NCBI GenBank assembly: GCA_049700215.1
Contig: JBNAVT010000085.1
Location: forward strand, 1-10,064
Length of the DNA stretch: 10,064 nt
DNA from: Thermoproteota archaeon
GTDB lineage: Archaea > Thermoproteota > EX4484-205 > JAAOZP01
Direction: 5' to 3'
The translations under genes and the position numbers were made by a program. Of the stretch, positions 1 to 10,064 are shown piece by piece; within the stretch, counting starts at the first letter, position 1, and each line of letters opens with the position of its first letter. Under the pieces are notes generated by a model. The model had not been told where the DNA came from and did no database searches. It was given only the letters and a program-made list of their open reading frames with translations.

Positions 1-1
1 A

Positions 2-1750
2 GCATTCGTAGGCGTTGAAAAGGCTGAGACAAGGATCACCTGGACAAGCATTGGAACGAATGAACTCTACAGCCAGATGGCGAGCGTCAGCGGGCTGCTC
101 GGAAGCGTTTTCGGACACGCTTTCGCAGAGGAGCTTGTTAAAACACTGCTGTTAAGCGGGCTGACCGACGCTCAAGTGCTGGACATAGTCAACACTTTGG
201 CGAAGAACGTTGGGTGGCTGAAGACGTTAACCAGAAGCAGCAGGGTCGATGTCATCAGAAAGATAACTGACTACGTTAAGAAGGGTAATACTGCCGAGGA
301 AGCGAGGGGGAAAGTTGAGAAGGAGAGCGAGGAGTACGTTAAGAACCTTGAGCTGGAGATACTTGAGTTCTACAACACTATCTCCGACACCATGCTTGCG
401 AACGAAGTTGAGGATCTTCTGAGACACGTTCTGAACACCCTTGGGCCGGAAGAGGCAAAGTGGCTCCTAGACCTGCTTAAGAGAATCCACAGCCAAGCTG
501 GAAACGCTGGGCTTAGGATAGCTGTAGAGAAAGCCTTCAAATATCCTGAAAGCAAGACGCAGGGATGCGCACTAGCCTCACACATAGTCGGCGAGCTGAG
601 GGAGAAAAGCACCGAGCAGGCATGGGAGGAGCTTAACAGGATAGTCAACTACCCTGACGGAATAAGATTTAGATGCAGACTTATATCTCGCGGAGACGGC
701 TTAGGATTTAGAATACCTGTAGAGTATCGGCCGTCGGTAGTTTCATATCTGGGGCATGAACCGTGCTGGATAAAATTGGAAGTAAAGGGAAGGGTTTTCT
801 ACAGAAACTATGGACCAAGCTTCGAATTCCGCCTTCCACAGAACGTTGGCGAAGTAGGCGAAGAAGTCGACATAACTATCGTTAAGATCAACACTTACGA
901 TTTCGTCAGAGACATCATTGAGAAAGCGAACGCGCCCTTCGACATATCATTCCGTTCGGGAAAATACATGCTTATTATAGGTGGAAAAGAAGTCTGCGAA
1001 ATATCCTTAGAGAAAGATTTGCATTACAGTGAGGGAGACGGTGGCCCCGCAGTCATCTTCGCCATAACAGACTATGCTGGGAGAAAGCACTCAATTAAGC
1101 TGGTTCAAACAAGTAATGATGAAAATCTGGTCAAAGTGATGATCAGCCAGTTTAGGAGAATTGCAAACATGAAATACGATGAGAAGGAAAGCAAACTCAC
1201 AATAGAATATTATAGGGGAGAAGGTGAAACCACGTCTGAGCATGAGGTCTTTTTCGAAAACCCCAAGACAGTTTTAGTAAGGATGGCTGAAGAATTGCGA
1301 GAACTTATAGGCAAGGGACTTAAGCGCGAAGCAAATGAGCTCGAAGGGGAAATTGGTGAACTTTATGCGGAGATTTATTTGAAAGAAGAGGTAATTAAGG
1401 AGAAGGCTTCTGGAATCCTAGGGATCCCGAAGGAAAGGCTCAGTATCCAGAAGGGTCATGAGAAGTGGGGGCCAGATTTCTACATTTACGGCGATGGCAA
1501 GTTGTTAATGATAATTGAGATCAAGGCCACAAGAATAAGCGATATAACGGAGCAGATGAATGATGCCATGGGTCAACTAAAAAAATATTTTACAAAAGAT
1601 AAGTGGAAAGATTACTTCATTGATATCAAATACGGAATTTCCTTAGTCATAGCATTTACGAATTTAGATAAAATTATCATATCAAACTTCTCAGAAGGCG
1701 TTGATATTATTTTCGGCGATGTAGTACTAAACCCGAACTATAAGGGTTAA
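2..1750 (+). CDS. 5'-truncated large protein with C-terminal PD-(D/E)xK (REase-fold) nuclease domain; putative polymorphic toxin A
   Basis: The frame of the 77..1750 ORF is open back to base 2 (AFVGVEKAETRITWTSIGTNELYSQM...), so the true start probably lies outside the window. A helical region (to ~660) is followed by a beta-rich region and then the motif set GEIGE (1346), GPDF (PD at 1472) and IIEIKAT (EIK at 1517), followed by QMNDAMGQL. This is the classic E...PD...ExK restriction-endonuclease-fold signature. Confidence 0.8.
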   Translation, partial: AFVGVEKAETRITWTSIGTNELYSQMASVSGLLGSVFGHAFAEELVKTLLLSGLTDAQVLDIVNTLAKNVGWLKTLTRSSRVDVIRKITDYVKKGNTAEEARGKVEKESEEYVKNLELEILEFYNTISDTMLANEVEDLLRHVLNTLGPEEAKWLLDLLKRIHSQAGNAGLRIAVEKAFKYPESKTQGCALASHIVGELREKSTEQAWEELNRIVNYPDGIRFRCRLISRGDGLGFRIPVEYRPSVVSYLGHEPCWIKLEVKGRVFYRNYGPSFEFRLPQNVGEVGEEVDITIVKINTYDFVRDIIEKANAPFDISFRSGKYMLIIGGKEVCEISLEKDLHYSEGDGGPAVIFAITDYAGRKHSIKLVQTSNDENLVKVMISQFRRIANMKYDEKESKLTIEYYRGEGETTSEHEVFFENPKTVLVRMAEELRELIGKGLKREANELEGEIGELYAEIYLKEEVIKEKASGILGIPKERLSIQKGHEKWGPDFYIYGDGKLLMIIEIKATRISDITEQMNDAMGQLKKYFTKDKWKDYFIDIKYGISLVIAFTNLDKIIISNFSEGVDIIFGDVVLNPNYKG

Positions 1751-1783
1751 CATCCTTATGGGGCTCCTCCTGTCTTCTGCAGA

Positions 1784-2539
1784 CTAATGCAACTTTACAT
1801 ATTTCCAGCCCCTTTCTTTCCTAAGCCTCTCAGCTTCATCTTGGGTAAGAACGATGAAGTAGAAATATTCATCCGGGAGCTCATAGTATTGATATCCAGT
1901 ATCCTTAATCAGCTCGTTTATCTCCTCCACAGCGGGACCCATTACGAGGTAATCGCGGTTGCAGAAAAAATCAGCGGCATGCTCCTTATTCCTGAACTTA
2001 AAAGACACCCTGATTCTAGTCCAATCTCCATAGCTAGAGTATACGTATTTCTTCACATTGGGAGGAGCTTCTCCCTCCCACTCGCTCCATTCCTCCTCCC
2101 TCAAATCTGCCGGAGTAAAAACACCCCTAGAGATCCTAGTTAGTCTCCTCATCAAGTAAATCCCAATATTCTCAGAGACAATCGTTTCTACAGCTTCAAT
2201 GAAAATTCTATTCTTATCGAAGGAGGCCAGCTCCAAATCTACTTCGTACTCGCTCCTCTTCATCCAATACTCCTTATCCCTCTCAACCCATTCCCTCAAG
2301 ATTACTCCGCGAGGCGTCTTCTTCCACACCTTCTTAATGTACTCCTCACCCTGCTCGTCCCTTGTCTCCTCCACAAACCATTGGGATTCATAATCTATCT
2401 CTCCACTGAAAATCTTGTCAAGAATCTCCTCTGAAGACAATTCGGAATAGTCTTTGAAGAACTCCATCTTCCTAAGGTACTCTATCGAATTCACGAATCG
2501 CTTCCTAAGTTCAGGATTCACCATCCTATTAATGATCAT
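1784..2539 (-). CDS. Hypothetical acidic/aromatic-rich protein, candidate immunity protein for toxin A (start may be ATG at 2524, MVNPELRK...)
   Basis: 251-aa ORF with natural composition whose stop is 33 bp from the toxin A stop (convergent). A degenerate paralogue of its N-terminus at 3468-3557 supports it being a real gene family. The immunity role is inferred only from position. Confidence 0.75.
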   Translation of the reverse strand: MIINRMVNPELRKRFVNSIEYLRKMEFFKDYSELSSEEILDKIFSGEIDYESQWFVEETRDEQGEEYIKKVWKKTPRGVILREWVERDKEYWMKRSEYEVDLELASFDKNRIFIEAVETIVSENIGIYLMRRLTRISRGVFTPADLREEEWSEWEGEAPPNVKKYVYSSYGDWTRIRVSFKFRNKEHAADFFCNRDYLVMGPAVEEINELIKDTGYQYYELPDEYFYFIVLTQDEAERLRKERGWKYVKLH

Positions 2540-2548
2540 GAAGCCGAG

Positions 2549-2556
2549 CTTTTAAG
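2549..2556 (-). promoter_or_regulatory. Possible TATA box (CTTAAAAG) for the 251-aa gene
   Basis: Lies ~25-32 nt upstream of ATG 2524, the spacing expected for a leaderless archaeal transcript. No clear BRE. Confidence 0.3.
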
Positions 2557-2672
2557 CGTAACTATTTCCTAATCTCATATGGAAGATTCTTCTCCATGAT
2601 TCAAAGTTTAGTGAGCTAATAGAGGCAAGTATAATTGATAAAAATATTTAAATAATACCGCCGGCGGGAAGA

Positions 2673-2688
2673 ATTTCGCTTTTTAAGT
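2673..2688 (-). other. tRNA intron 2 (16 nt, position 59/60, T-loop)
   Basis: Intron ACTTAAAAAGCGAAAT forms a strict BHB: central helix TTCG/CGAA, bulges AG|A and AT|T, inner stem CTT/AAG, outer T-stem GGAAG/CTTCC. Removal restores the T-loop TTCGAGT. Confidence 0.92.
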
Positions 2689-2725
2689 CTCGAACTTCCG
2701 ACCAACGGGTTAACAGCCCGCTGCT

Positions 2726-2738
2726 TTAGGCTGTTTAA
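2726..2738 (-). other. tRNA intron 1 (13 nt, position 22/23, D-arm)
   Basis: Intron TTAAACAGCCTAA forms a bulge-helix-bulge: central helix AGGT/GCCT, bulges AG|T and AA|A. Removal restores the D-stem GCTC/GAGC. Confidence 0.9.
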
Positions 2739-2792
2739 CTACCTGCTGAGCTACGCCGGCCGCCGGCTGGTTTTTATTCGGAGGAGAGGTGT

Positions 2793-2806
2793 GTTAAATA
2801 CTTTTC
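2793..2806 (-). promoter_or_regulatory. BRE + TATA box of the tRNA-Asn gene
   Basis: The minus strand reads GAAAAG-TATTTAAC, a purine-rich BRE directly followed by a TATA-like box, 33-46 nt upstream of mature tRNA position 1. This is consistent with a short 5' leader. Confidence 0.65.
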
Positions 2807-3455
2807 TGTCTTCCTAGCTTTTGAAAAGGGCGTATGAATGTGTGCTATAGGATTGGTGCCGGAATGTAATTAGTGTAGTCGGTCACGTCATAAATAGCGT
2901 TTTCATCGTGTGTTTTATCGTGGTATGTGTCCCAGTTGTGAAGCATGTCTTCTCCCACTTAGCGCGCGTGCTGAAGCTGAATCTTTCCCTTGCTTAGAGC
3001 CTTCTCGTTTACTATTCCACAAAAACACGAATGTCTTCTTGTTTGAACTTGAGTGTGAAATTAGTGCTGAGAGGTGTTCTGACATCTGACATCTAATATA
3101 TCATTGTTAATACGCGCACTAGCCAGCCATGGTGAGCCCATTATATAGGCTTGCCGTGAGCATCCTTATTCAGAGGACCGTCCTCACAGGGTTACCCCAG
3201 CCTCCGACGATCCTGTTTTTAGCGTGCATGATCATCGCTTCCATGCTCAGGGGTAACTGAAAGGGGCCATATTGCCAGGGAGGGGTTTGCCTCGTCGAGA
3301 ACCCTAGCTATACTTTTTCTTTCAAGCTCCACCCTGCCACCTGTGGGTTTGCACGCGCGCGCAAAGCATCCATGATGGTTCACCTAAACAATCTCGTCTT
3401 TATGATTCCTTTAGAGGCCGCCTCATGGAGAGCTGAATAATGCTTCCCTTTCCCA

Positions 3456-3560
3456 TTACTCTGTATTTTCCTCATCGAATATCCTTTCAAAAATCTTCTC
3501 CGAAGGCAGGTTGGAGTAGTTCTGAAAGAAGTCGGGCTTCCTAGGGTATTCTATCGAAAA
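3456..3560 (-). pseudogene. Degenerate N-terminal fragment paralogous to the 1784..2539 gene
   Basis: 3557-3468 translates SIEYPRKPDFFQNYSNLPSEKIFERIFDEE versus SIEYLRKMEFFKDYSELSSEEILDKIFSGE in the intact gene (17/30 identical, ungapped), then hits TAA at 3458-3456. Weak similarity may continue through stops and a frameshift to ~3391. Confidence 0.85.
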
Positions 3561-3652
3561 GCTACTTAGGTACGACAATTTACTATCTTCGGATGATAAT
3601 ACTTATATTTTGCTGTATAATTACAGCTGGATTGCAATGGCTTTATTGTTGA

Positions 3653-4720
3653 ATGAGGGAGAAGCGTTTAATGATTAGGGTAGACTATGATAAGAAGGTT
3701 TTAGAGATTAGGCCGTTCTCAGGCGAGGAATTGTGGAAGGCTTACCATCTTATCGACGAGGGCGACTTGGCTTCGGCGGAAACCGTGCGAATACTGAAGA
3801 TTGATGAAGGCGAGAAAAGCAGGCGCAAGGCTTTTCTGAAAATAATGGTTGAGAAGGCTGGGTTCGAAGTCTCGTCGGAAACTATTCAGCTCAGTGGAAG
3901 GGTTTTAGAATGCCCGGAGGACATGGAGGGTGTTCTCGGCCATTATCATACTCTGACTGTAGGCGTCGGGGACAGGGTTGTGGTTGAGAAGCAGGAGTTC
4001 TCCCCGATTCACAGGAGGATTCTAAGCCGGGACGTGGCCACGAAGAAGTATATTATCATAGCGATTGAGCTTGGAACCGCTACGCTAGCCGTCGTGAAGG
4101 ATTACGGGGTTGTTGAAAGCCTAGAGGTTGAGCAGGATATTCCTGGTAAAAACTTTCCCGAAGAGCGTGAGGCCCTAGCCGTAAGGTTTTTCCACGAGGT
4201 GTCAAAGACTCTTAGAAGCATCTGGATTAAAGAAGGTAAGCCGAAGATAATCCTGATAGGTCCCAGTGTTACGCGCGAAGCATTCCTGAAATTCGTGAAG
4301 GACAAGCATGGGGATATTCAAGACTCTATAGCCGGTAGCTTCCACTCCTCCGGGGGAACAATATCAGCGGTAAACGAGTTTCTGAGGAGCAACGAGATGA
4401 GGGTTGTGGCGAGGGAGTTGAAGATTGTCGACGAGATAACGGCTATAGAAAGCTTCTTTGAGAACCTGGTTAAGGAGAGGGCTGTCTACGGTCTGGAGGA
4501 AACCTGGAAGGCTGTTGAAAAGGGAGCAGTCAGCCAGCTGATAATACACGTTAAGCTGGCCTCCCAGTCAGGCTCCTTGAGGGAGAGAGTGATGGAGATG
4601 ATAAGGCTTGTTGAACAATACGGCGGGGAAGTAACCATAGTGAGCGGCAGACATGAGTCGGCGGAGAAACTCAGGAGGATCGGCGGCATAGGGGGGATTT
4701 TAAGATATAAAATATACTAG
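3653..4720 (+). CDS. pelA: mRNA surveillance / ribosome rescue protein Pelota (Dom34 homologue); start may be ATG 3671
   Basis: 355 aa with the typical archaeal pelota three-domain pattern: ELWKAYHLIDEGD..AETVR, LSGRVLECPED..LGHYHTLTV, the IPGK loop, ILIGPS, AVYGLEE..KAVEKGAV..L, and C-terminal GGEVTIVS..HE..EKL..IGGIGGILRY. It lacks the GGQ/NIKS motifs of aRF1. Confidence 0.95.
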   Translation: MREKRLMIRVDYDKKVLEIRPFSGEELWKAYHLIDEGDLASAETVRILKIDEGEKSRRKAFLKIMVEKAGFEVSSETIQLSGRVLECPEDMEGVLGHYHTLTVGVGDRVVVEKQEFSPIHRRILSRDVATKKYIIIAIELGTATLAVVKDYGVVESLEVEQDIPGKNFPEEREALAVRFFHEVSKTLRSIWIKEGKPKIILIGPSVTREAFLKFVKDKHGDIQDSIAGSFHSSGGTISAVNEFLRSNEMRVVARELKIVDEITAIESFFENLVKERAVYGLEETWKAVEKGAVSQLIIHVKLASQSGSLRERVMEMIRLVEQYGGEVTIVSGRHESAEKLRRIGGIGGILRYKIY

Positions 4721-4806
4721 CTTCTGCGGACCACTGGTATATCGTGCCATGAAACCTTTGTAGCGATACGGATAAAATCAGGAGTCGCTTATCTGCGGGG
4801 AAAGGC

Positions 4807-5148
4807 CTAATCATACGTTCCTATGCTTCTCAGAAAAAGGGTGATATCGCCTCCCAGTCCAAGCGAGTATGGTAATAATGCGATAGGGAGTTTGTCTACC
4901 GGTTCATCGTTCATTGTAATCCTAGTATTATCCGATGTTCTAGTGGGCCCAGGCATTCTCATGTATATTATGATGACCAATGCTTCTTTCAATATATATG
5001 CCAGGCATACCAGCCAAGTATCATTACTATAATGCAATATCTCCAGTACATTATTTCCGGAAATCCTTGATATTTTTCCATATAGGTCCCATATTAGAGA
5101 CTTGGTGTTAAGCTTACTCAGCCACCATGTGCGATTGAGCTCATACAT
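4807..5148 (-). CDS. Doubtful hypothetical protein or decayed gene
   Basis: 113-aa ORF filling the gap downstream of, and co-oriented with, the 5182..5913 gene. No recognisable motif. Confidence 0.25.
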   Translation of the reverse strand: MYELNRTWWLSKLNTKSLIWDLYGKISRISGNNVLEILHYSNDTWLVCLAYILKEALVIIIYMRMPGPTRTSDNTRITMNDEPVDKLPIALLPYSLGLGGDITLFLRSIGTYD

Positions 5149-5181
5149 ATACCTTGCCGAAGGCTACTGCTTAACGTAGTG

Positions 5182-5913
5182 CTACGCCTGTTTGATCGTG
5201 AACCACATCTCTACGTTGTACTTCTTATAGACCTCATAAGACTTCTTGAAGATGTTGCCGAAATGTCTTACGTATTCGCTGAGGAATGACGTATACTCAT
5301 CGACAAGTTGTTCTTCTGTCTTCTCATTAAGTTCCTTCTTACTAATGTGGTAGCGCTTCATCCACTTTTTTGCGATCTCTCTGTCCTTAGGATTGGCCTT
5401 CGAGAACAATCCCTCCTTAAGGAGAATGCCAACCTCGTCCATCACCTCTCTTAAACCGAACACATCAACTGGCCAGAGGAGACCATACGGAAGCTGGGTT
5501 ATCCTCCTGAAATACCTGTCACTCCTCACCACCGGCTTCACTTTGTCTATGAGTAAAGTCGCATAAGGGTATGTTTTCTCCATTTCCTTCTTCAGGGACT
5601 CATAGTCTTCTCGAAGACACTTCCAGCCGGATTCTTGATCGAGGCCTAGCGTCTCCATGATCCTACTTACAGAGAAATAGGACATTGAGTCAATGATGTC
5701 CGGTATGTACTTGAGACCCTTCTGAACCATTAGCCAAGTTTCGTCCATACGGTGCTCCTCCCATGGCAGCCGGGAGGAATTCCCGATCTCACCTATAAAA
5801 CCTAGATCCTCACCGATCTTTTCTTCAATTTCCCTTTCGATCATCCTTCTTTTCCTACTGCGAACCTTAGAGGAGACTAAGATGATTATGTGATACAGCA
5901 TCCTACTTACCAT
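5182..5913 (-). CDS. Hypothetical helical charged protein, candidate immunity protein for toxin B (start could be 5901 or 5844)
   Basis: 243-aa ORF with natural composition from MIERE (5844) onward. It is co-oriented with toxin B and begins 71 bp after its stop. The immunity role is inferred from position. Confidence 0.75.
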   Translation of the reverse strand: MVSRMLYHIIILVSSKVRSRKRRMIEREIEEKIGEDLGFIGEIGNSSRLPWEEHRMDETWLMVQKGLKYIPDIIDSMSYFSVSRIMETLGLDQESGWKCLREDYESLKKEMEKTYPYATLLIDKVKPVVRSDRYFRRITQLPYGLLWPVDVFGLREVMDEVGILLKEGLFSKANPKDREIAKKWMKRYHISKKELNEKTEEQLVDEYTSFLSEYVRHFGNIFKKSYEVYKKYNVEMWFTIKQA

Positions 5914-5984
5914 AAATTACTCTAACACTTATTAAGCTTACATGAAGGTCAGAGTCAAACCATATGTATGGCTCTAACTCATTC

Positions 5985-8900
5985 CTAGCCAAGGTTTACC
6001 GTGTACTTGTCTAAGCTGGGGTGATCGGGTGAGACGGGATCTCCCTCTTCGATTATGACGAAGACCTTACCCATGAGCTTGTTACCATACTGCTTATTGT
6101 ATTCTATGTATACCTGCCTTATTAGGGTGAGGTACTCCTTTGCTCCTCGCCCTATAGGCTCATTATAGAAGCGATAGTATACTGCGGAGTAATCCTTGTC
6201 TTCAAGAAGCAGTAATGCATCCTTCTCTGCTTGTACCTTTGTACCTTCATCGACCCAGTCTTCCAGCCCAGTCTTCACCTCCCAGATGGTTTCTTTTCCT
6301 CCCAATATTATAGTAAGGTCCACCGCACGCTCACCCTTAGAGGTCCTAATCCGTACTTCATGCCCCGTTACTTGACCTCCCCTCTTAGTAGCATAGACTT
6401 CCGTATCGATCTTCGCCACGCTATGAAGATCTTGCGGAGCCGGCTTCGAAAGACCTATAAGCTTCCTCCTTCCATCTTTTGGATAAACGACTAGTATATC
6501 TTCTGCCTGCATTCCCTTTACAACCTCTCCATGGATGAAGTAATAAGTTCGATAGTATTCAATCTTTTCGATGCTCCATCTCTCCTTAACCCTTTCTTCT
6601 TTTACGTACCTAACTATTAGCTTAACGATAAAACCTTCTTGGTCATCTGTAGAAATTTCAAATGCCAGTCTATGATTCTCGTTATGGAAGTTCATCTCGA
6701 GCGTGGTCATCATCCGTGTCGGAGTCGTAAACCGATAGTCACTCTCCTCGATCCTTCTGTATATAGTTCCCTCGGATGTTTTGATCCAGAGATGCACTAT
6801 CTTTTCTCCATTAACTAACTCCGTCTTGATGGTAAAATCTCCACTTTCCATTTTATACTCAAATTTGTCTGCCCATAGGACACAAAGATCTGATAGGCTG
6901 GATACTCCTTCCGGAACATCAAACTCCATTTTAGAAGAAGCTGTCCACGCGGCCGTCTTTCCACCACTGTCGGTGTCGAAGATTGCCAGGAGTACGACCA
7001 TGTCATTTTCTAAACCCGTCTTAAGCCTTCGGTAGGTCTGAGGATCAAGGATCCTCCTGAAGAATTCATCAACTTTCAGGAGACTCTGATCCTTTTTAAA
7101 GGAAATGATTCCTTCGCTGTTATCAAGTCGCCAATACCATTGCCCTTCGCAGAGATCACTGCTTATGAGGAATATACCTGCAAGCTTTCCATCTAGGCCT
7201 TCAAGTAACAGTAGCTTACTTGTTTTGCCGGAAACAACATCCCTAACCGACTTTAATGAGAATCCCTTTATCGCCCCTACACTTCCAGAGGGACGTACTA
7301 GCTCTAAAGATCCCGTAGTAGTAACGCGAATCTTATACTTTGGTGCTCCTTCCTCTGATAGATCGCTGAAGGAGAACTCTATGTACGGCCCGCGTGTACC
7401 TGCTCTAATCTTTCCGGGTCCAAGTTCTTCAAGACCATTAAGGTAGATGTTCTCATCCTTTACTATAAGGATTCTCTCTATATTGTTCTTAAATCTAATG
7501 TAAAAGTCTATGCCTGTGAACTCTTTTATTATAACAAGGACTTCTTGCCCACCCTTTATACCACTATCCGTAAATGCGAAGACCTCTTGCGACTGCTCAA
7601 CCTCCCTTGCACCCTCCGTTATGAGCTCTCCCGTATTTGGATCTAAAACATACACGTAAATTACCTTCCCCATGATCCTGCCCGAATCCTCCGGCAAGGG
7701 GACATAATCTTTTTGAGGAGTTCTCTTAATGTATATGCATCCGTCATCAAAAGTCTTAGCAAGGTCATTGAGTAAATAAGGGTTTTTAGCTATAACTTTA
7801 AGAAGCGCATCTGCAATACTTCTTCCATACTGCCCTGATTCCAAAGCCATAAAGTAGATGTTAAATAGCTTAAGTCCATTTCCGAAGGTACTACCAACTT
7901 GAGCAAGTGCCTTACCTATGTCCTCAAGTTCTTCGGCACTGAGACCACTAAGCTTTGGTACTATTTCAACAATGACTTGCTCTAACGCAACTGCTTCAGT
8001 ATTGTAAATCCAATGGAGGAGTTCGTTAGCACATTTCTTACTCTTTTTACCGATGCTTTTCATCTCTTGAATAAACTTGTCCCAAGCATCCTCGCTTAAC
8101 CTGCATTTTCCATACGCCCAAAGCAAGCCTAGGAAAGCATCCTCGCTCAACCCGAGTCTGCAAGAGATATCTAGAGCGTCATCGAGGAATCTCCCGGTAA
8201 ATTCAACCAGCGAGCTCAGCGATCCCTCATCATCTTTAATCAAATTCAAGTGCCGCCTGAAATCGTCATTCTCCTCAGAAATTGCTAGGGAGGCGGCGAT
8301 CCCCCTTGCCGTAAGCTTTCCAGCTACGACTCCTACATCCCACAGCGGTGGGGTTATCCAATTGTAAACTCCTTTCAAAAATTCCTTTACCTGCCCTGCA
8401 CACGAAAGCAATTTCGGTCCGTTGCTGAGAAACCTGTAATACATTCCAGCATAAGTGATAAGTGATAGCGCTGCCCCTACTAGTCTCCCTAAAGCCCTAC
8501 CTTTCTCGTATTCTCTCGTATCCTCCTTGCCGAAAACGATTAGCACGTCCCTTATGGTTACGTCCGCAAGCAGATCTAGCGCTGTGCTCTCAACTACGTA
8601 TCCCTGTTTCTCCTCAATCCTGTTTTTAAGCCCTTGAAGGAGAGAATATGTGTTGAAGAACCCGGCGTAAGCAACCCTCTGGGAGAAACCGTCGAGTTCT
8701 TCAGCAACCTCGCTAATCTTAGCGTAGGCCGAATAGGCTTCGAAGATCTTCCTGATGTTAGATGCCACGCCCACGGCCATGAGGCTTGGAATCACCGCAG
8801 ATGCCAAAAGGTCCTTGACGTAGGCTAGGAAGGAGCCGCCGTGCGTCGGTATTGCAAGTATGACCATTATCGTCGCTGTTACGATTATTCCGGGTAGCTT

Positions 8901-10064
8901 CTCCTTGACCCCGTCCCAGAAGCCGCTCCAGAACTCTGAGATCTCACCTGCGGCATGAACCCAGAGCGATGCGACAAACCTATCCCCATGCCTAAGATGA
9001 ATGAGGATTGGAGAATTTACGCTTTTAAGCTGAACAAGATTCAGGGGAACTGAGCCGTAAGCTGGGATGCTAAGGACACTGTTCTCTGGCAGAGACTCGG
9101 TCATCGGTCCACGTAATAATTCGAGCTCATAAGTCATATCCCTTGCGGCATAGTTTTTGACTAAAACTCCCTTGACTAATCCGTCTCCTTGACAGGTGAG
9201 CGGACGGTAAATGAGCTTCATCGTTTTCTCATGCAGAATCCTAATTGTAGCTTTATCCAGGTCCCATTTCTTAACCCTCGTGTCCTCATACTTGTAATCA
9301 TGGTCCTCCCAGTTGTCGTACTTGAGCTTCTCATAGAATTCATCGTTAACAGTTACGATCTCAGATTGGTTAAGCACCTCTTCCTTGAGAAGCTTAACCT
9401 CATAGCCAGGTGGAATCTTGCTGGTCTCTAACTTCTCATCTTCGTTTATGTGAAAGAGTCTCTTTACTTCATCCTCTCTTAATATTCTCTCGCAGAGGAA
9501 GCCTGGTTTAACATCGACCAGCATGTACCTTACCTCCGGAACCTTGGAAGAAATCTCTGGAATATCGTTCGCATTCTCCAAGGTTAGCGTGAAGCCGTTT
9601 GGAGAGATTGGTATTAAGCTAAGCCCAGTAGGGAAGCCAGGAGCATATGGAGGTATCAGGTCATTTCTCATTAGGTAAAGCTTGAGGTGAGTTGCACCGC
9701 GATAGCCTGGGACGAAGATCCTCTTAGTCTCCTCATATTCCGGAACTTCTATAAGGTAGGTTCTCCACTCCTCCGGAGTTACGAAGTTTGTGGTCGAGAT
9801 CGTCGTGAGTGAAGTACTAGTATGCCTCTTGCCATCAAGGTCATGATAGACCGCTGTGATGTTAACTTTAGCTATTGGTGAGAGGAGTTTAGTTATTATA
9901 TTTCCCTCCCAAGTGTGCCAGACCCTTCCAACATCAAGCTCCTTCTCCTCGATATCCCCGGTTACGAGGAGCTTGACATCCCTAGCCTCCTGCCCACCAC
10001 TATTAACCAAGGTTATCGTAAGGTTCGCGAACTTAGCTAAGGCCTCGGCCTTAAGCTCAACCTT
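5985..10064 (-). CDS. 5'-truncated very large (>1350 aa) protein with Ig-like region, central hydrophobic segments and C-terminal REase-fold nuclease; putative polymorphic toxin B
   Basis: The frame is open to the window end (KVELKAEALAKFANLTITLVNSGG...). Visible N-terminal part resembles a CARDB/Ig-like beta-sandwich (LTITLVNSGGQEARDVKL...VNITAVYHDLDGKRH). Hydrophobic block FWSGFWDGVKEKLPGIIVTATIMVILAIPTHGGS...VGVA at ~8935-8760, and YEKGRALGRLVGAALSLITYAGM at ~8510-8440. C-terminal E (6401)...RTSKGERAVD (D at 6320)...WEVKTG (E at 6281)...QAEKDALL...VYYRF motif set. Confidence 0.82.
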   Translation of the reverse strand, partial: KVELKAEALAKFANLTITLVNSGGQEARDVKLLVTGDIEEKELDVGRVWHTWEGNIITKLLSPIAKVNITAVYHDLDGKRHTSTSLTTISTTNFVTPEEWRTYLIEVPEYEETKRIFVPGYRGATHLKLYLMRNDLIPPYAPGFPTGLSLIPISPNGFTLTLENANDIPEISSKVPEVRYMLVDVKPGFLCERILREDEVKRLFHINEDEKLETSKIPPGYEVKLLKEEVLNQSEIVTVNDEFYEKLKYDNWEDHDYKYEDTRVKKWDLDKATIRILHEKTMKLIYRPLTCQGDGLVKGVLVKNYAARDMTYELELLRGPMTESLPENSVLSIPAYGSVPLNLVQLKSVNSPILIHLRHGDRFVASLWVHAAGEISEFWSGFWDGVKEKLPGIIVTATIMVILAIPTHGGSFLAYVKDLLASAVIPSLMAVGVASNIRKIFEAYSAYAKISEVAEELDGFSQRVAYAGFFNTYSLLQGLKNRIEEKQGYVVESTALDLLADVTIRDVLIVFGKEDTREYEKGRALGRLVGAALSLITYAGMYYRFLSNGPKLLSCAGQVKEFLKGVYNWITPPLWDVGVVAGKLTARGIAASLAISEENDDFRRHLNLIKDDEGSLSSLVEFTGRFLDDALDISCRLGLSEDAFLGLLWAYGKCRLSEDAWDKFIQEMKSIGKKSKKCANELLHWIYNTEAVALEQVIVEIVPKLSGLSAEELEDIGKALAQVGSTFGNGLKLFNIYFMALESGQYGRSIADALLKVIAKNPYLLNDLAKTFDDGCIYIKRTPQKDYVPLPEDSGRIMGKVIYVYVLDPNTGELITEGAREVEQSQEVFAFTDSGIKGGQEVLVIIKEFTGIDFYIRFKNNIERILIVKDENIYLNGLEELGPGKIRAGTRGPYIEFSFSDLSEEGAPKYKIRVTTTGSLELVRPSGSVGAIKGFSLKSVRDVVSGKTSKLLLLEGLDGKLAGIFLISSDLCEGQWYWRLDNSEGIISFKKDQSLLKVDEFFRRILDPQTYRRLKTGLENDMVVLLAIFDTDSGGKTAAWTASSKMEFDVPEGVSSLSDLCVLWADKFEYKMESGDFTIKTELVNGEKIVHLWIKTSEGTIYRRIEESDYRFTTPTRMMTTLEMNFHNENHRLAFEISTDDQEGFIVKLIVRYVKEERVKERWSIEKIEYYRTYYFIHGEVVKGMQAEDILVVYPKDGRRKLIGLSKPAPQDLHSVAKIDTEVYATKRGGQVTGHEVRIRTSKGERAVDLTIILGGKETIWEVKTGLEDWVDEGTKVQAEKDALLLLEDKDYSAVYYRFYNEPIGRGAKEYLTLIRQVYIEYNKQYGNKLMGKVFVIIEEGDPVSPDHPSLDKYTVNLG
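8084..8152. repeat. 18-bp direct repeat pair (17/18 identical) within toxin B, 51 bp apart
   Basis: AAGCATCCTCGCTTAACC (8084-8101) and AAGCATCCTCGCTCAACC (8135-8152); each encodes LSEDA on the minus strand. Confidence 0.7.

Follow-up and report, generated by a model that had tools for sequence, protein, structure and literature searches.

Our analysis points, with moderate confidence, to a lineage-specific polymorphic toxin-immunity system in Brockarchaeota-like archaea, of which a 10,064-nt stretch of DNA (hereafter the window) carries the 3' ends of two independent loci. The window is the entire contig C85 of an archaeal metagenome-assembled genome (MAG; 85 contigs, 2.09 Mb, 94.6% complete, Brockarchaeota-like). 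Two long open reading frames (ORFs), A and B, leave it at its two ends, as an earlier prediction made from the letters of the window (hereafter the original prediction) had stated, and because the window is a whole contig both are cut by contig ends (Table 1). The same prediction interpreted them as an archaeal polymorphic toxin locus involved in inter-microbial conflict. That interpretation appears to be supported by C-termini that vary among relatives, by neighbouring genes that go with particular classes of C-terminal domain (tips) and by tips predicted to fold as restriction endonuclease (REase) domains. The idea of a single locus did not hold: both ORFs, both tips and both neighbours exist, but they form two loci with two carrier families, flanking a Pelota/Dom34 gene. 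Since this ordinary housekeeping gene sits between the toxin-like loci, we regard them as two separate insertions around it.

Both carrier families end in exchangeable modules

Searches with tblastn placed both ORFs in families that are multi-copy in the MAG. In neither carrier family do the homologues all share one C-terminus, and the neighbouring genes are conserved within each tip class. In the B family, five relatives (P0019, P0021, P0017, P0016 and P0014) are 73-76% identical to ORF B over aa 1-721/736 and show no detectable similarity beyond aa 721-736, while P0027 and P0030 have bodies that are 24-26% identical to B and last ~120 aa that are 44% identical. Paralogues of ORF A on contigs C8, C42 and C57 have only aa 1-215 in common with it (56-60% identity), and the alignments of five database homologues end at A aa 199-205. 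A conserved carrier is followed in both families by differing C-termini, with a sharp loss of similarity at B aa 721-736 and A aa 199-215. Modules also cross between the families: in one paralogue (C57a), an A-type conserved segment is followed by the C-terminal module known from C10b, a B-family protein (44% identity, 484 columns), and one tip class (class 6) is found on both core classes.

The original prediction had expected a variable tip of ~140 aa; the tip does vary, but the exchangeable module is larger, ~370-640 aa. The GC content of the variable parts is 0.414 in A (617-1750) and 0.437 in B (5985-7877), and that of the neighbouring genes 0.437 and 0.451, compared with 0.515 and 0.474 in the conserved segments of A and B and 0.492 in the genome. 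The junction alignment held no conserved motif of the VENN kind.

Both tips are predicted to be PD-(D/E)xK nucleases

The PD-(D/E)xK motif sets noticed earlier at both C-termini are present in the translations, as GEIGE...GPDFYIYGDGKLLMIIEIKAT in ORF A and TSKGERAVDLTIILGGKETIWEVKTG...QAEKD in ORF B, and the D and ExK are kept in relatives. The putative catalytic residues of tip A are D492, E506 and K508 (D98, E112 and K114 in the tip alignment); G96-P97-D98 is invariant in 9/9 sequences, position 112 is E in eight and D in one, and K114 is kept in 8/9. Those of tip B are D1249, E1262 and K1264 (D45, E58 and K60), invariant in 7/7 sequences, as are H1214, E1236 and D1282. AlphaFold2 models of the last 188 aa of ORF A (pLDDT 89.1, pTM 0.82) and the last 155 aa of ORF B (pLDDT 91.5, pTM 0.86) both have an alpha-beta-beta-beta-alpha-beta core with the D at strand 2 and the ExK in strand 3.

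Nearly all Foldseek and VIA-align matches of both tips were PD-(D/E)xK nucleases, and across the tips they included REases, Hjc, Cas4-like proteins, SfsA and XisH, plus the toxin nucleases CdiA-CT, TseT and CidB. For tip B, run with VIA-align against 48,161 chains, the matches were XisH (2okf; Z 9.0, 116 residues aligned, rmsd 3.3), AF1548 (Z 8.5) and BstEII (Z 8.4), with lower rows near-exclusively of REase fold (SfsA, NucS, Hjc, TseT 7dym at Z 6.3 and CdiA-CT 4g6v at Z 6.2). For tip A, the rows after the top two, which are taken up below, were an alkaline exonuclease (Z 6.7), an REase-like protein (6.6), HsdR (6.3) and BpuSI (6.1), with CidB (Z 5.9), EcoRV and Hjc further down. In addition, 4/9 tip A members matched the Pfam family HSDR_N weakly (best E 2.5e-4). 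Given the fold matches and the weak HSDR_N similarity in tip A relatives, we regard the REase fold as established for both modelled tips, which keep the catalytic D...ExK; nuclease activity is predicted. The motif was also recognized by eye in six more tip sequences of the genome and in the alignment of tip class 1. Pfam Tox-REase families gave no match at E <= 0.1 for A, B, tip A relatives or other tips, and the tip B profile found a single non-significant Cas4 match among PDB sequences (E 0.67).

As a separate observation, members of tip classes 1 and 6 (L009, L010, L016-L018 and others) carry a beta-rich motif, approximately FDNGxxAYCG...VPEGAxxIxxIEIV, just upstream of the REase domain, which could mark a pretoxin or processing region.

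Neighbouring genes accompany particular tip classes

Each tip is adjoined by a small gene. An unrecognized ORF of ~220-250 aa had been predicted within 75 bp of each stop, and both are found: nA (251 aa) and nB (243 aa), unannotated. nB is co-directional with B and follows it after 71 nt; nA lies 33 nt from the A stop on the opposite strand, a convergent orientation that had gone unmentioned. Neither nA nor nB matched a Pfam, NCBIfam or PADLOC model or contains hydrophobic segments or a signal peptide, and nA is predicted to be a cytoplasmic protein.

To describe the pairing we drew on 62 loci, taken from this MAG and from 12 related genomes. Of 66 ORFs that are 500 aa or longer, terminate in a stop and are unmasked near their end, 52 matched the family, and one internal piece of a split gene was dropped. 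The resulting 51 complete C-termini fell into 14 tip classes; the set leaves out a paralogue whose C-terminal part is masked, as well as genes that a contig end truncates ahead of the stop. The neighbour scored was the first clustered neighbour within 400 nt. Class 1 is accompanied by a co-directional gene of family N1 in 15/15 cases and class 7 by N1 in 3/3. Family N2, to which nA belongs, stands convergent to class 3 (tip A, 6/6) and class 6 (3/3). N3, the nB family, accompanies class 2 in 5/7 cases, with two lacking a clustered neighbour, and class 5 (tip B) in 3/5, the other two having a 471-475-aa protein; class 4 is found with N2 (3/5), N3 (1/5) and another gene (1/5). The first neighbour appears to be largely predictable from the tip class, the rows not being independent counts because some are the same sequence in two genomes and all genomes are related. 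The adjacent gene varies with the type of tip, which links the two, and its immunity role is putative.

A wider search of the 26 genomes of the class found tip A at 38 places in 14/26 genomes. An nA homologue stood tail-to-tail beside it in 17/20 loci examined (two of which overlap one place and two of which come from this MAG), including fragments with stop codons, and the three loci without nA were the weakest tip matches. Tip B was found at 8 places in 5/26 genomes, followed by nB in 3/8, with an nB fragment on the other side in 1/8 and none in the available flank in 4/8. Over 12 tip-N2 pairs, tip identity correlated with nA identity (Mantel r 0.76, reached by 0/2000 permutations). This correlation shows common inheritance of tip and nA as one cassette and does not imply binding. 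Complex prediction for tip A and nA, both as alignments, scored 0.04 without controls, which speaks neither for nor against a complex. In the ESM Atlas the matches of nA were confined to bacterial clusters without a name, ~200 aa long (feature score 0.93, TM 0.59), which we take as a lead rather than as evidence, and nB had no usable match. For N1 and N9, the two upstream genes and further tips, Pfam searches yielded nothing above threshold, and the hits below it looked like chance.

The carriers are predicted to be membrane-embedded

Carriers of the B family measure ~1600-1800 aa and those of the A family 2330-2460 aa. The first visible residue of B corresponds to residue 367-368 of a complete 1620-aa paralogue on contig C10, which opens with a signal-peptide-like segment by hydropathy; no known secretion-system domain was found alongside such N-termini in B-family paralogues. 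Residues 2-360 of the same paralogue are matched by a 366-aa ORF that is cut by the end of contig C20. This ORF is likely to be the missing N-terminus of B (signal peptide plus 366 aa), but no overlap between the sequences of the two contigs was found. Upstream of B-family genes, and overlapping them, lies a gene whose ~400-aa product (401 aa on C20) has a signal peptide and is anchored at its C-terminus. In ORF B, two strongly hydrophobic helices sit next to each other at aa 390-437 (nt 8754-8897), and the hydropathy-based plan of the family is a signal peptide, ~720 aa of immunoglobulin (Ig)/CARDB-like exterior, a hydrophobic hairpin and a helical region.

The first residue of ORF A corresponds to residue ~1757-1799 of its 2330-2460-aa relatives, and its visible conserved segment aligns to ~aa 1757-2004 of them. 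In full-length members, hydrophobic helices number about six at the N-terminus, with two or three more near residue 1300, which gives a plan of a polytopic N-terminal domain, ~1000 aa and then the 2-3 hydrophobic helices; their genes are preceded by a different gene, for a ~500-aa secreted protein. Short stand-alone forms of 558-562 aa, which start within the conserved segment, also exist. In the MAG, one stand-alone 558-aa form is the only A-family copy that no contig end truncates, and the window's ORF A may therefore be a long form or a short one, such as a 557-aa gene starting from the ATG at nt 77. The description of both proteins as giant is borne out for B by its 1620-aa relatives, but for A it is only inferred, since the short forms exist. 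From these helices the carriers of both families appear to be embedded in the membrane, which corrects the earlier account.

As had been suspected, the carrier appears to be of an undescribed type. The Pfam scan covered the window ORFs, two full-length relatives (L009, 1620 aa; L010, 1704 aa) and A-family pieces. Rhs/YD, haemagglutinin, LXG, Hint, DUF4157 and other Pfam families were absent at E <= 0.05-0.1 from window ORFs and full-length relatives alike, carriers and accessory genes matched no Pfam, NCBIfam or PADLOC model, and the carriers had no solved relative by sequence in the PDB, where a profile of the B-family body found designed helical repeats and a weak titin Ig match. One 2383-aa A-family protein (P0182) bears the source name 'transcription elongation GreA/GreB family factor' without a recorded Pfam family, which looks like a mis-annotation.

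Short, orphan and decayed cassettes

Tips and neighbours also occur as orphan or displaced cassettes of a putative toxin and immunity gene. On contig C9 (39314-42832; L015, C9:37000-47000) the 558-aa short A form and its convergent nA directly follow ribosomal-protein genes, and behind them lie, inverted, a 131-aa ORF consisting of a class 6 tip only and a 106-aa partial nA-like ORF. A comparable 562-aa short A-family form is present in a related genome (G019, L057). Many tip A fragments with stops still adjoin nA, some contigs carry several nA genes, and on C40 another paralogue is followed by three nB-family genes in tandem.

Decay is visible within the window as well. Its 1.1-kb stretch without an intact gene (2540-3652) contains a remnant of an nA-like N-terminus (3456..3578, minus strand) and, at ~3158..3356 on the same strand, a remnant of an archaeo-eukaryotic-primase-like C-terminus with ~80% protein identity to pieces on C69 and C64. 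We read the stretch as a probable decayed cassette or mobile-element scar. The primase-like remnant recurs on C64, C69 and C17 (C17:169-1059), and because on C64 and C69 it adjoins fragments of the A-family upstream gene and of nA, it suggests that a mobile element is associated with the loci.

Two further rearranged loci were noted. At ~27200-28700 of contig C1 an A-family upstream-gene fragment is directly followed by a tip A remnant and nA-like pieces, and the locus looks as if the intervening giant gene had been deleted. On C10 (L014, C10:1-8000), a B-family paralogue at 344-5195 (+) is broken by one TGA and has no signal peptide of its own; by eye, its 5' end is in frame with ~80 codons resembling the start of an aspartate kinase, and a convergent nA-family neighbour is kept. 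This paralogue is probably a rearranged pseudogene.

The system is confined to one lineage

The B-family body was matched in 13/26 genomes of the class, with up to 15 matches per genome and nearly all in one genus: 11/16 genomes of the same genus, 1/3 of one other genus and 0/6 across the remaining four genera. Database relatives comprised 39 B-family proteins, 21 A-family proteins and 125 nA-family clusters, all of the latter from archaeal MAGs and without a Pfam match, while the tip B profile found only 16 proteins among 1.84 billion representatives. Named relatives came from MAGs labelled 'Candidatus Brockarchaeota archaeon' or 'Thermoproteota archaeon', with a few other archaeal labels. 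Both carrier families are multi-copy and appear only in this lineage in the collections searched. The DNA of the window occurs in hot-spring metagenomes, and no RNA run appeared among the sequencing runs that contain it.

Gene layout of the window

Table 1. Positions of genes, domains and remnants in the 10,064-nt window.
Feature	Position	Strand	Remarks
ORF A	2..1750	+	582 aa, 5' end open
ORF A conserved carrier segment, visible aa 1-205	2..616	+	paralogues at 56-60% identity on C8, C42, C57 and C9
ORF A variable module, beta-rich middle, aa 206-394	617..1183	+	without assigned family
Tip A, predicted PD-(D/E)xK (REase-fold) domain, aa 395-582 and stop	1184..1750	+	alignment, HSDR_N, AlphaFold2, fold matches
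nA, 251 aa, putative immunity protein, neighbour family N2	1784..2539	-	convergent with ORF A
Stretch without intact gene, 1.1 kb	2540..3652	.	nA-like and primase-like remnants
Pelota/Dom34 gene	3653..4720	+	Pfam eRF1_1, eRF1_2, eRF1_3
113-aa ORF, gene fragment	4807..5148	-	C-terminal piece of a 318-aa protein
nB, 243 aa, putative immunity protein, neighbour family N3	5182..5913	-	co-directional with ORF B
ORF B	5985..10064	-	1359 aa, 5' end open
Tip B, predicted PD-(D/E)xK nuclease domain, aa 1205-1359 and stop	5985..6452	-	alignment, AlphaFold2, VIA-align
ORF B variable module, beta-rich middle, ~aa 730-1204	6453..7877	-	similarity of relatives ends at aa 721-736
ORF B conserved carrier segment, visible aa 1-729	7878..10064	-	includes hydrophobic helical hairpin, aa 390-437

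No Rfam families or tRNAs were found in the window. The 113-aa ORF is 60% identical over 114 aa to a 318-aa protein with an N-terminal hydrophobic segment (C17:44911-45864) and is probably a pseudogene piece. Among contigs from three hot-spring DNA runs, two from the probable source run, of 915 nt (window 1-446) and 255 nt (window 9954-10064), reach beyond the two window ends without a usable joint, and runs of two other studies contain near-identical pieces of A, nA, Pelota, nB and B at low depth.

Proposed mechanism and alternative explanations

A polymorphic toxin-immunity system fits the architecture better than the alternatives, since it accounts at once for the carrier, the recombination boundary, the nuclease-tipped module, the linked partner and the orphans. 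Each locus would encode a giant membrane-anchored surface protein whose conserved body ends at a recombination breakpoint and is followed by an exchangeable module, ~370-640 aa long, that would always end in a PD-(D/E)xK domain. On contact, the carrier would display or deliver this module to a neighbouring cell and, wherever the matching immunity gene is absent, the delivered nuclease would cut the nucleic acid of the recipient. The small, presumably cytoplasmic neighbour (nA for tip A, nB for tip B) would be the cognate immunity protein, blocking the nuclease in the producer and its kin, and orphan tip-immunity cassettes would form a reservoir for tip replacement through recombination in the conserved segment. 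The modular architecture with its breakpoints, the REase fold and catalytic triad, the tip-neighbour linkage, the orphan cassettes and the multi-copy, lineage-restricted range are what we observe; toxicity, immunity by binding, export, delivery route and target are what we infer. A bolder version, which we put forward tentatively and consider rather doubtful, is contact-dependent killing without a separate secretion machine. A hairpin-anchored giant would reach a neighbouring cell with its Ig-like exterior and, its hairpin and helical region acting as a translocon, transfer a cleaved REase module to the cytoplasm of the target. A private cassette library of the Brockarchaeota with three immunity superfamilies, one always convergent, would be shuffled between two unrelated chassis.

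Several findings weigh against a polymorphic toxin system. Being convergent, nA is not co-transcribed with the toxin gene; it is rather well conserved (mean column identity 54%), and its family accompanies three tip classes (3, 4 and 6). The pairing of tips and neighbours is not strict, with exceptions in classes 2, 4 and 5, and the Mantel correlation can arise from linkage alone among loci that come from related genomes. Fold scores are middling, lower for tip A than for tip B, with Foldseek E-values of 1e-3 to 1e-2, and the top VIA-align rows of tip A are non-nuclease CamS lipoprotein domains (Z 7.1 and 7.0). Every tip class inspected here is a PD-(D/E)xK variant, whereas toxins of unrelated folds occur together in classical polymorphic toxin systems. 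In one tip A relative (L047:1495-2046, in the 2340-aa protein of G012 C14) the motif reads IIELETT, with K replaced by E, and the nA neighbour is kept; this tip may be inactive or altered. Finally, the topology rests on hydropathy, and the nuclease could be cytoplasmic.

A cytoplasmic nuclease is the core of one alternative, a membrane-anchored defence resembling abortive infection. The exterior would sense virus or envelope damage, nA or nB would hold the nuclease until infection frees it to degrade DNA, and pair diversity would stem from an arms race with viral inhibitors. The carriers are indeed predicted to be integral membrane proteins with internal hydrophobic helices, and with an odd number of spans the tip would lie inside the cell. 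Neither nA nor nB carries a signal peptide or a hydrophobic segment, and among the fold relatives of tip B are the defence nucleases Can2, Card1, Cdn1 and DdmD. Against this, B shows only two strongly hydrophobic adjacent helices, which would leave both of its large parts on the side of the signal-peptide-led N-terminus. No PADLOC model matched any part, and recombination segments, orphan cassettes, stand-alone forms and immunity arrays are a signature of competition toxins, unlike known defence. We consider the defence explanation improbable. More improbable still are selfish addiction cassettes of the toxin-antitoxin kind that spread by recombination onto the 3' ends of surface-protein genes, the giants having another role such as adhesion or S-layer formation. 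Such cassettes would agree with a GC content below that of the carrier bodies, with short and orphan forms that lie without a carrier beside housekeeping genes, and with the primase-like mobile-element remnants that adjoin cassette remnants in the window, C64 and C69. They agree less well with tips fused in frame to two carrier families in 51 complete examples and with breakpoints at recurrent positions; no free-standing full tip-neighbour pair devoid of any carrier-derived segment was seen among the loci, and the short forms begin in the conserved carrier segment.

The least probable alternative, which we give very little credence, is kin recognition or adhesion, with variable C-termini as identity tags, REase-like domains that bind without toxicity and neighbours as recognition partners, akin to the hypotheses offered for VARTIG. 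Large, surface-anchored, lineage-specific proteins with hypervariable C-termini and variable downstream genes are features that VARTIG has too, according to the available text of PMC8416519. Here, however, D...ExK is kept in 7/7 tip B and 8-9/9 tip A relatives and is seen in other tip classes, which argues for catalysis, and the neighbours lack signal peptides and hydrophobic segments. A polymorphic toxin-immunity system is accordingly the explanation we prefer.

The carrier, accessory, tip and neighbour families appear to be undescribed, while the logic of the system, that of polymorphic toxins, is already known. In this uncultured hot-spring lineage, each genome spends ~ten giant genes or more on the system, and none of its component families is annotated; they comprise the two carriers, an anchored accessory protein, three families of neighbours and several classes of predicted nuclease tips. 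If the proposal is true, it would add a new delivery chassis for nuclease toxins across the archaeal envelope and new thermostable nuclease-inhibitor pairs, and would explain why the loci break metagenome assemblies. Experimental support for antagonism between archaea so far exists, in the available text of PMC11566945, for only a few examples, among them halocins, sulfolobicins and a haloarchaeal type VI secretion system (T6SS) with DUF4157 toxins.

Comparison with known systems

The organization most closely recalls bacterial toxin delivery. CdiA-CdiI mediates contact-dependent growth inhibition in Proteobacteria through a giant surface protein with an exchangeable C-terminal toxin, a cognate immunity gene and orphan CT/immunity modules. 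The loci described here likewise combine a conserved body, an exchangeable C-terminus, a small adjacent gene and orphan modules, and some CdiA-CTs are PD-(D/E)xK nucleases (4g6v at Z 6.2 to tip B; 4g6u and 4zqu were also among the structure rows). They differ in lacking, at E <= 0.05-0.1, any Pfam match to two-partner secretion (TPS), haemagglutinin-repeat or VENN/pretoxin domains and in having no CdiB-like partner, as well as in their archaeal host, the predicted membrane embedding by internal helices, the convergent nA and tips that are all REase variants. Polymorphic toxin systems were reportedly defined in general terms by Zhang et al. in 2012, a work cited in PMC8416519 and PMC6393860. 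Rhs/YD, LXG, MafB and WapA systems resemble our loci in having a carrier, a variable C-terminal toxin, an adjacent immunity gene and displaced cassettes, but their carrier domains are undetected here by Pfam, and RHS/YD repeats in particular matched neither the window ORFs nor the full-length relatives.

In archaea, polymorphic toxin systems are said to have been predicted by Makarova et al. in 2019 (mBio). DUF4157 is quoted as a signature of the archaeal systems, in which PD-DExK nucleases are abundant toxins (available text of PMC6393860), and toxicity has been demonstrated for haloarchaeal T6SS toxins with DUF4157, as has protection by their downstream immunity genes (available text of PMC11566945). 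Both share with our loci the theme of archaeal inter-microbial conflict and toxin-immunity pairs, which are predicted here; ours differ by lacking DUF4157 or another signature, by lineage and by unannotated carrier and neighbour families, and from the haloarchaeal T6SS also by the absence of a contractile injection system as far as looked. Literature searches on Brockarchaeota toxins and archaeal polymorphic nuclease toxins turned up only unrelated, bacterial or general papers and no account of the system, its families not having been compared with the 2019 lists.

At the level of the toxin domain, TseT-TsiT (7dym, 9oz0) and Wolbachia CidB/CinB likewise pair a PD-(D/E)xK domain with a dedicated neutralizing partner, and there is structural similarity of this group to tip B (Z 6.3-6.4) and to tip A (Z 5.9); the fold alone is common, at 11-12% identity, and carriers and partners are unrelated. 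In organization, the nearest archaeal analogue appears to be VARTIG of Thermococcales, whose variable part consists of an Ig domain and for which the available text of PMC8416519 identifies no toxin domain. Going by that text, the two have in common lineage-specific, multi-copy, large secreted or anchored proteins that contain Ig/CARDB-like parts and recombine at a hypervariable C-terminus, the small genes downstream being variable too. The variable part of our carriers ends instead in a predicted nuclease and the downstream proteins lack transmembrane segments, so that the two are set apart by architecture and lineage rather than by the sequences of arCOG07710/arCOG14200.

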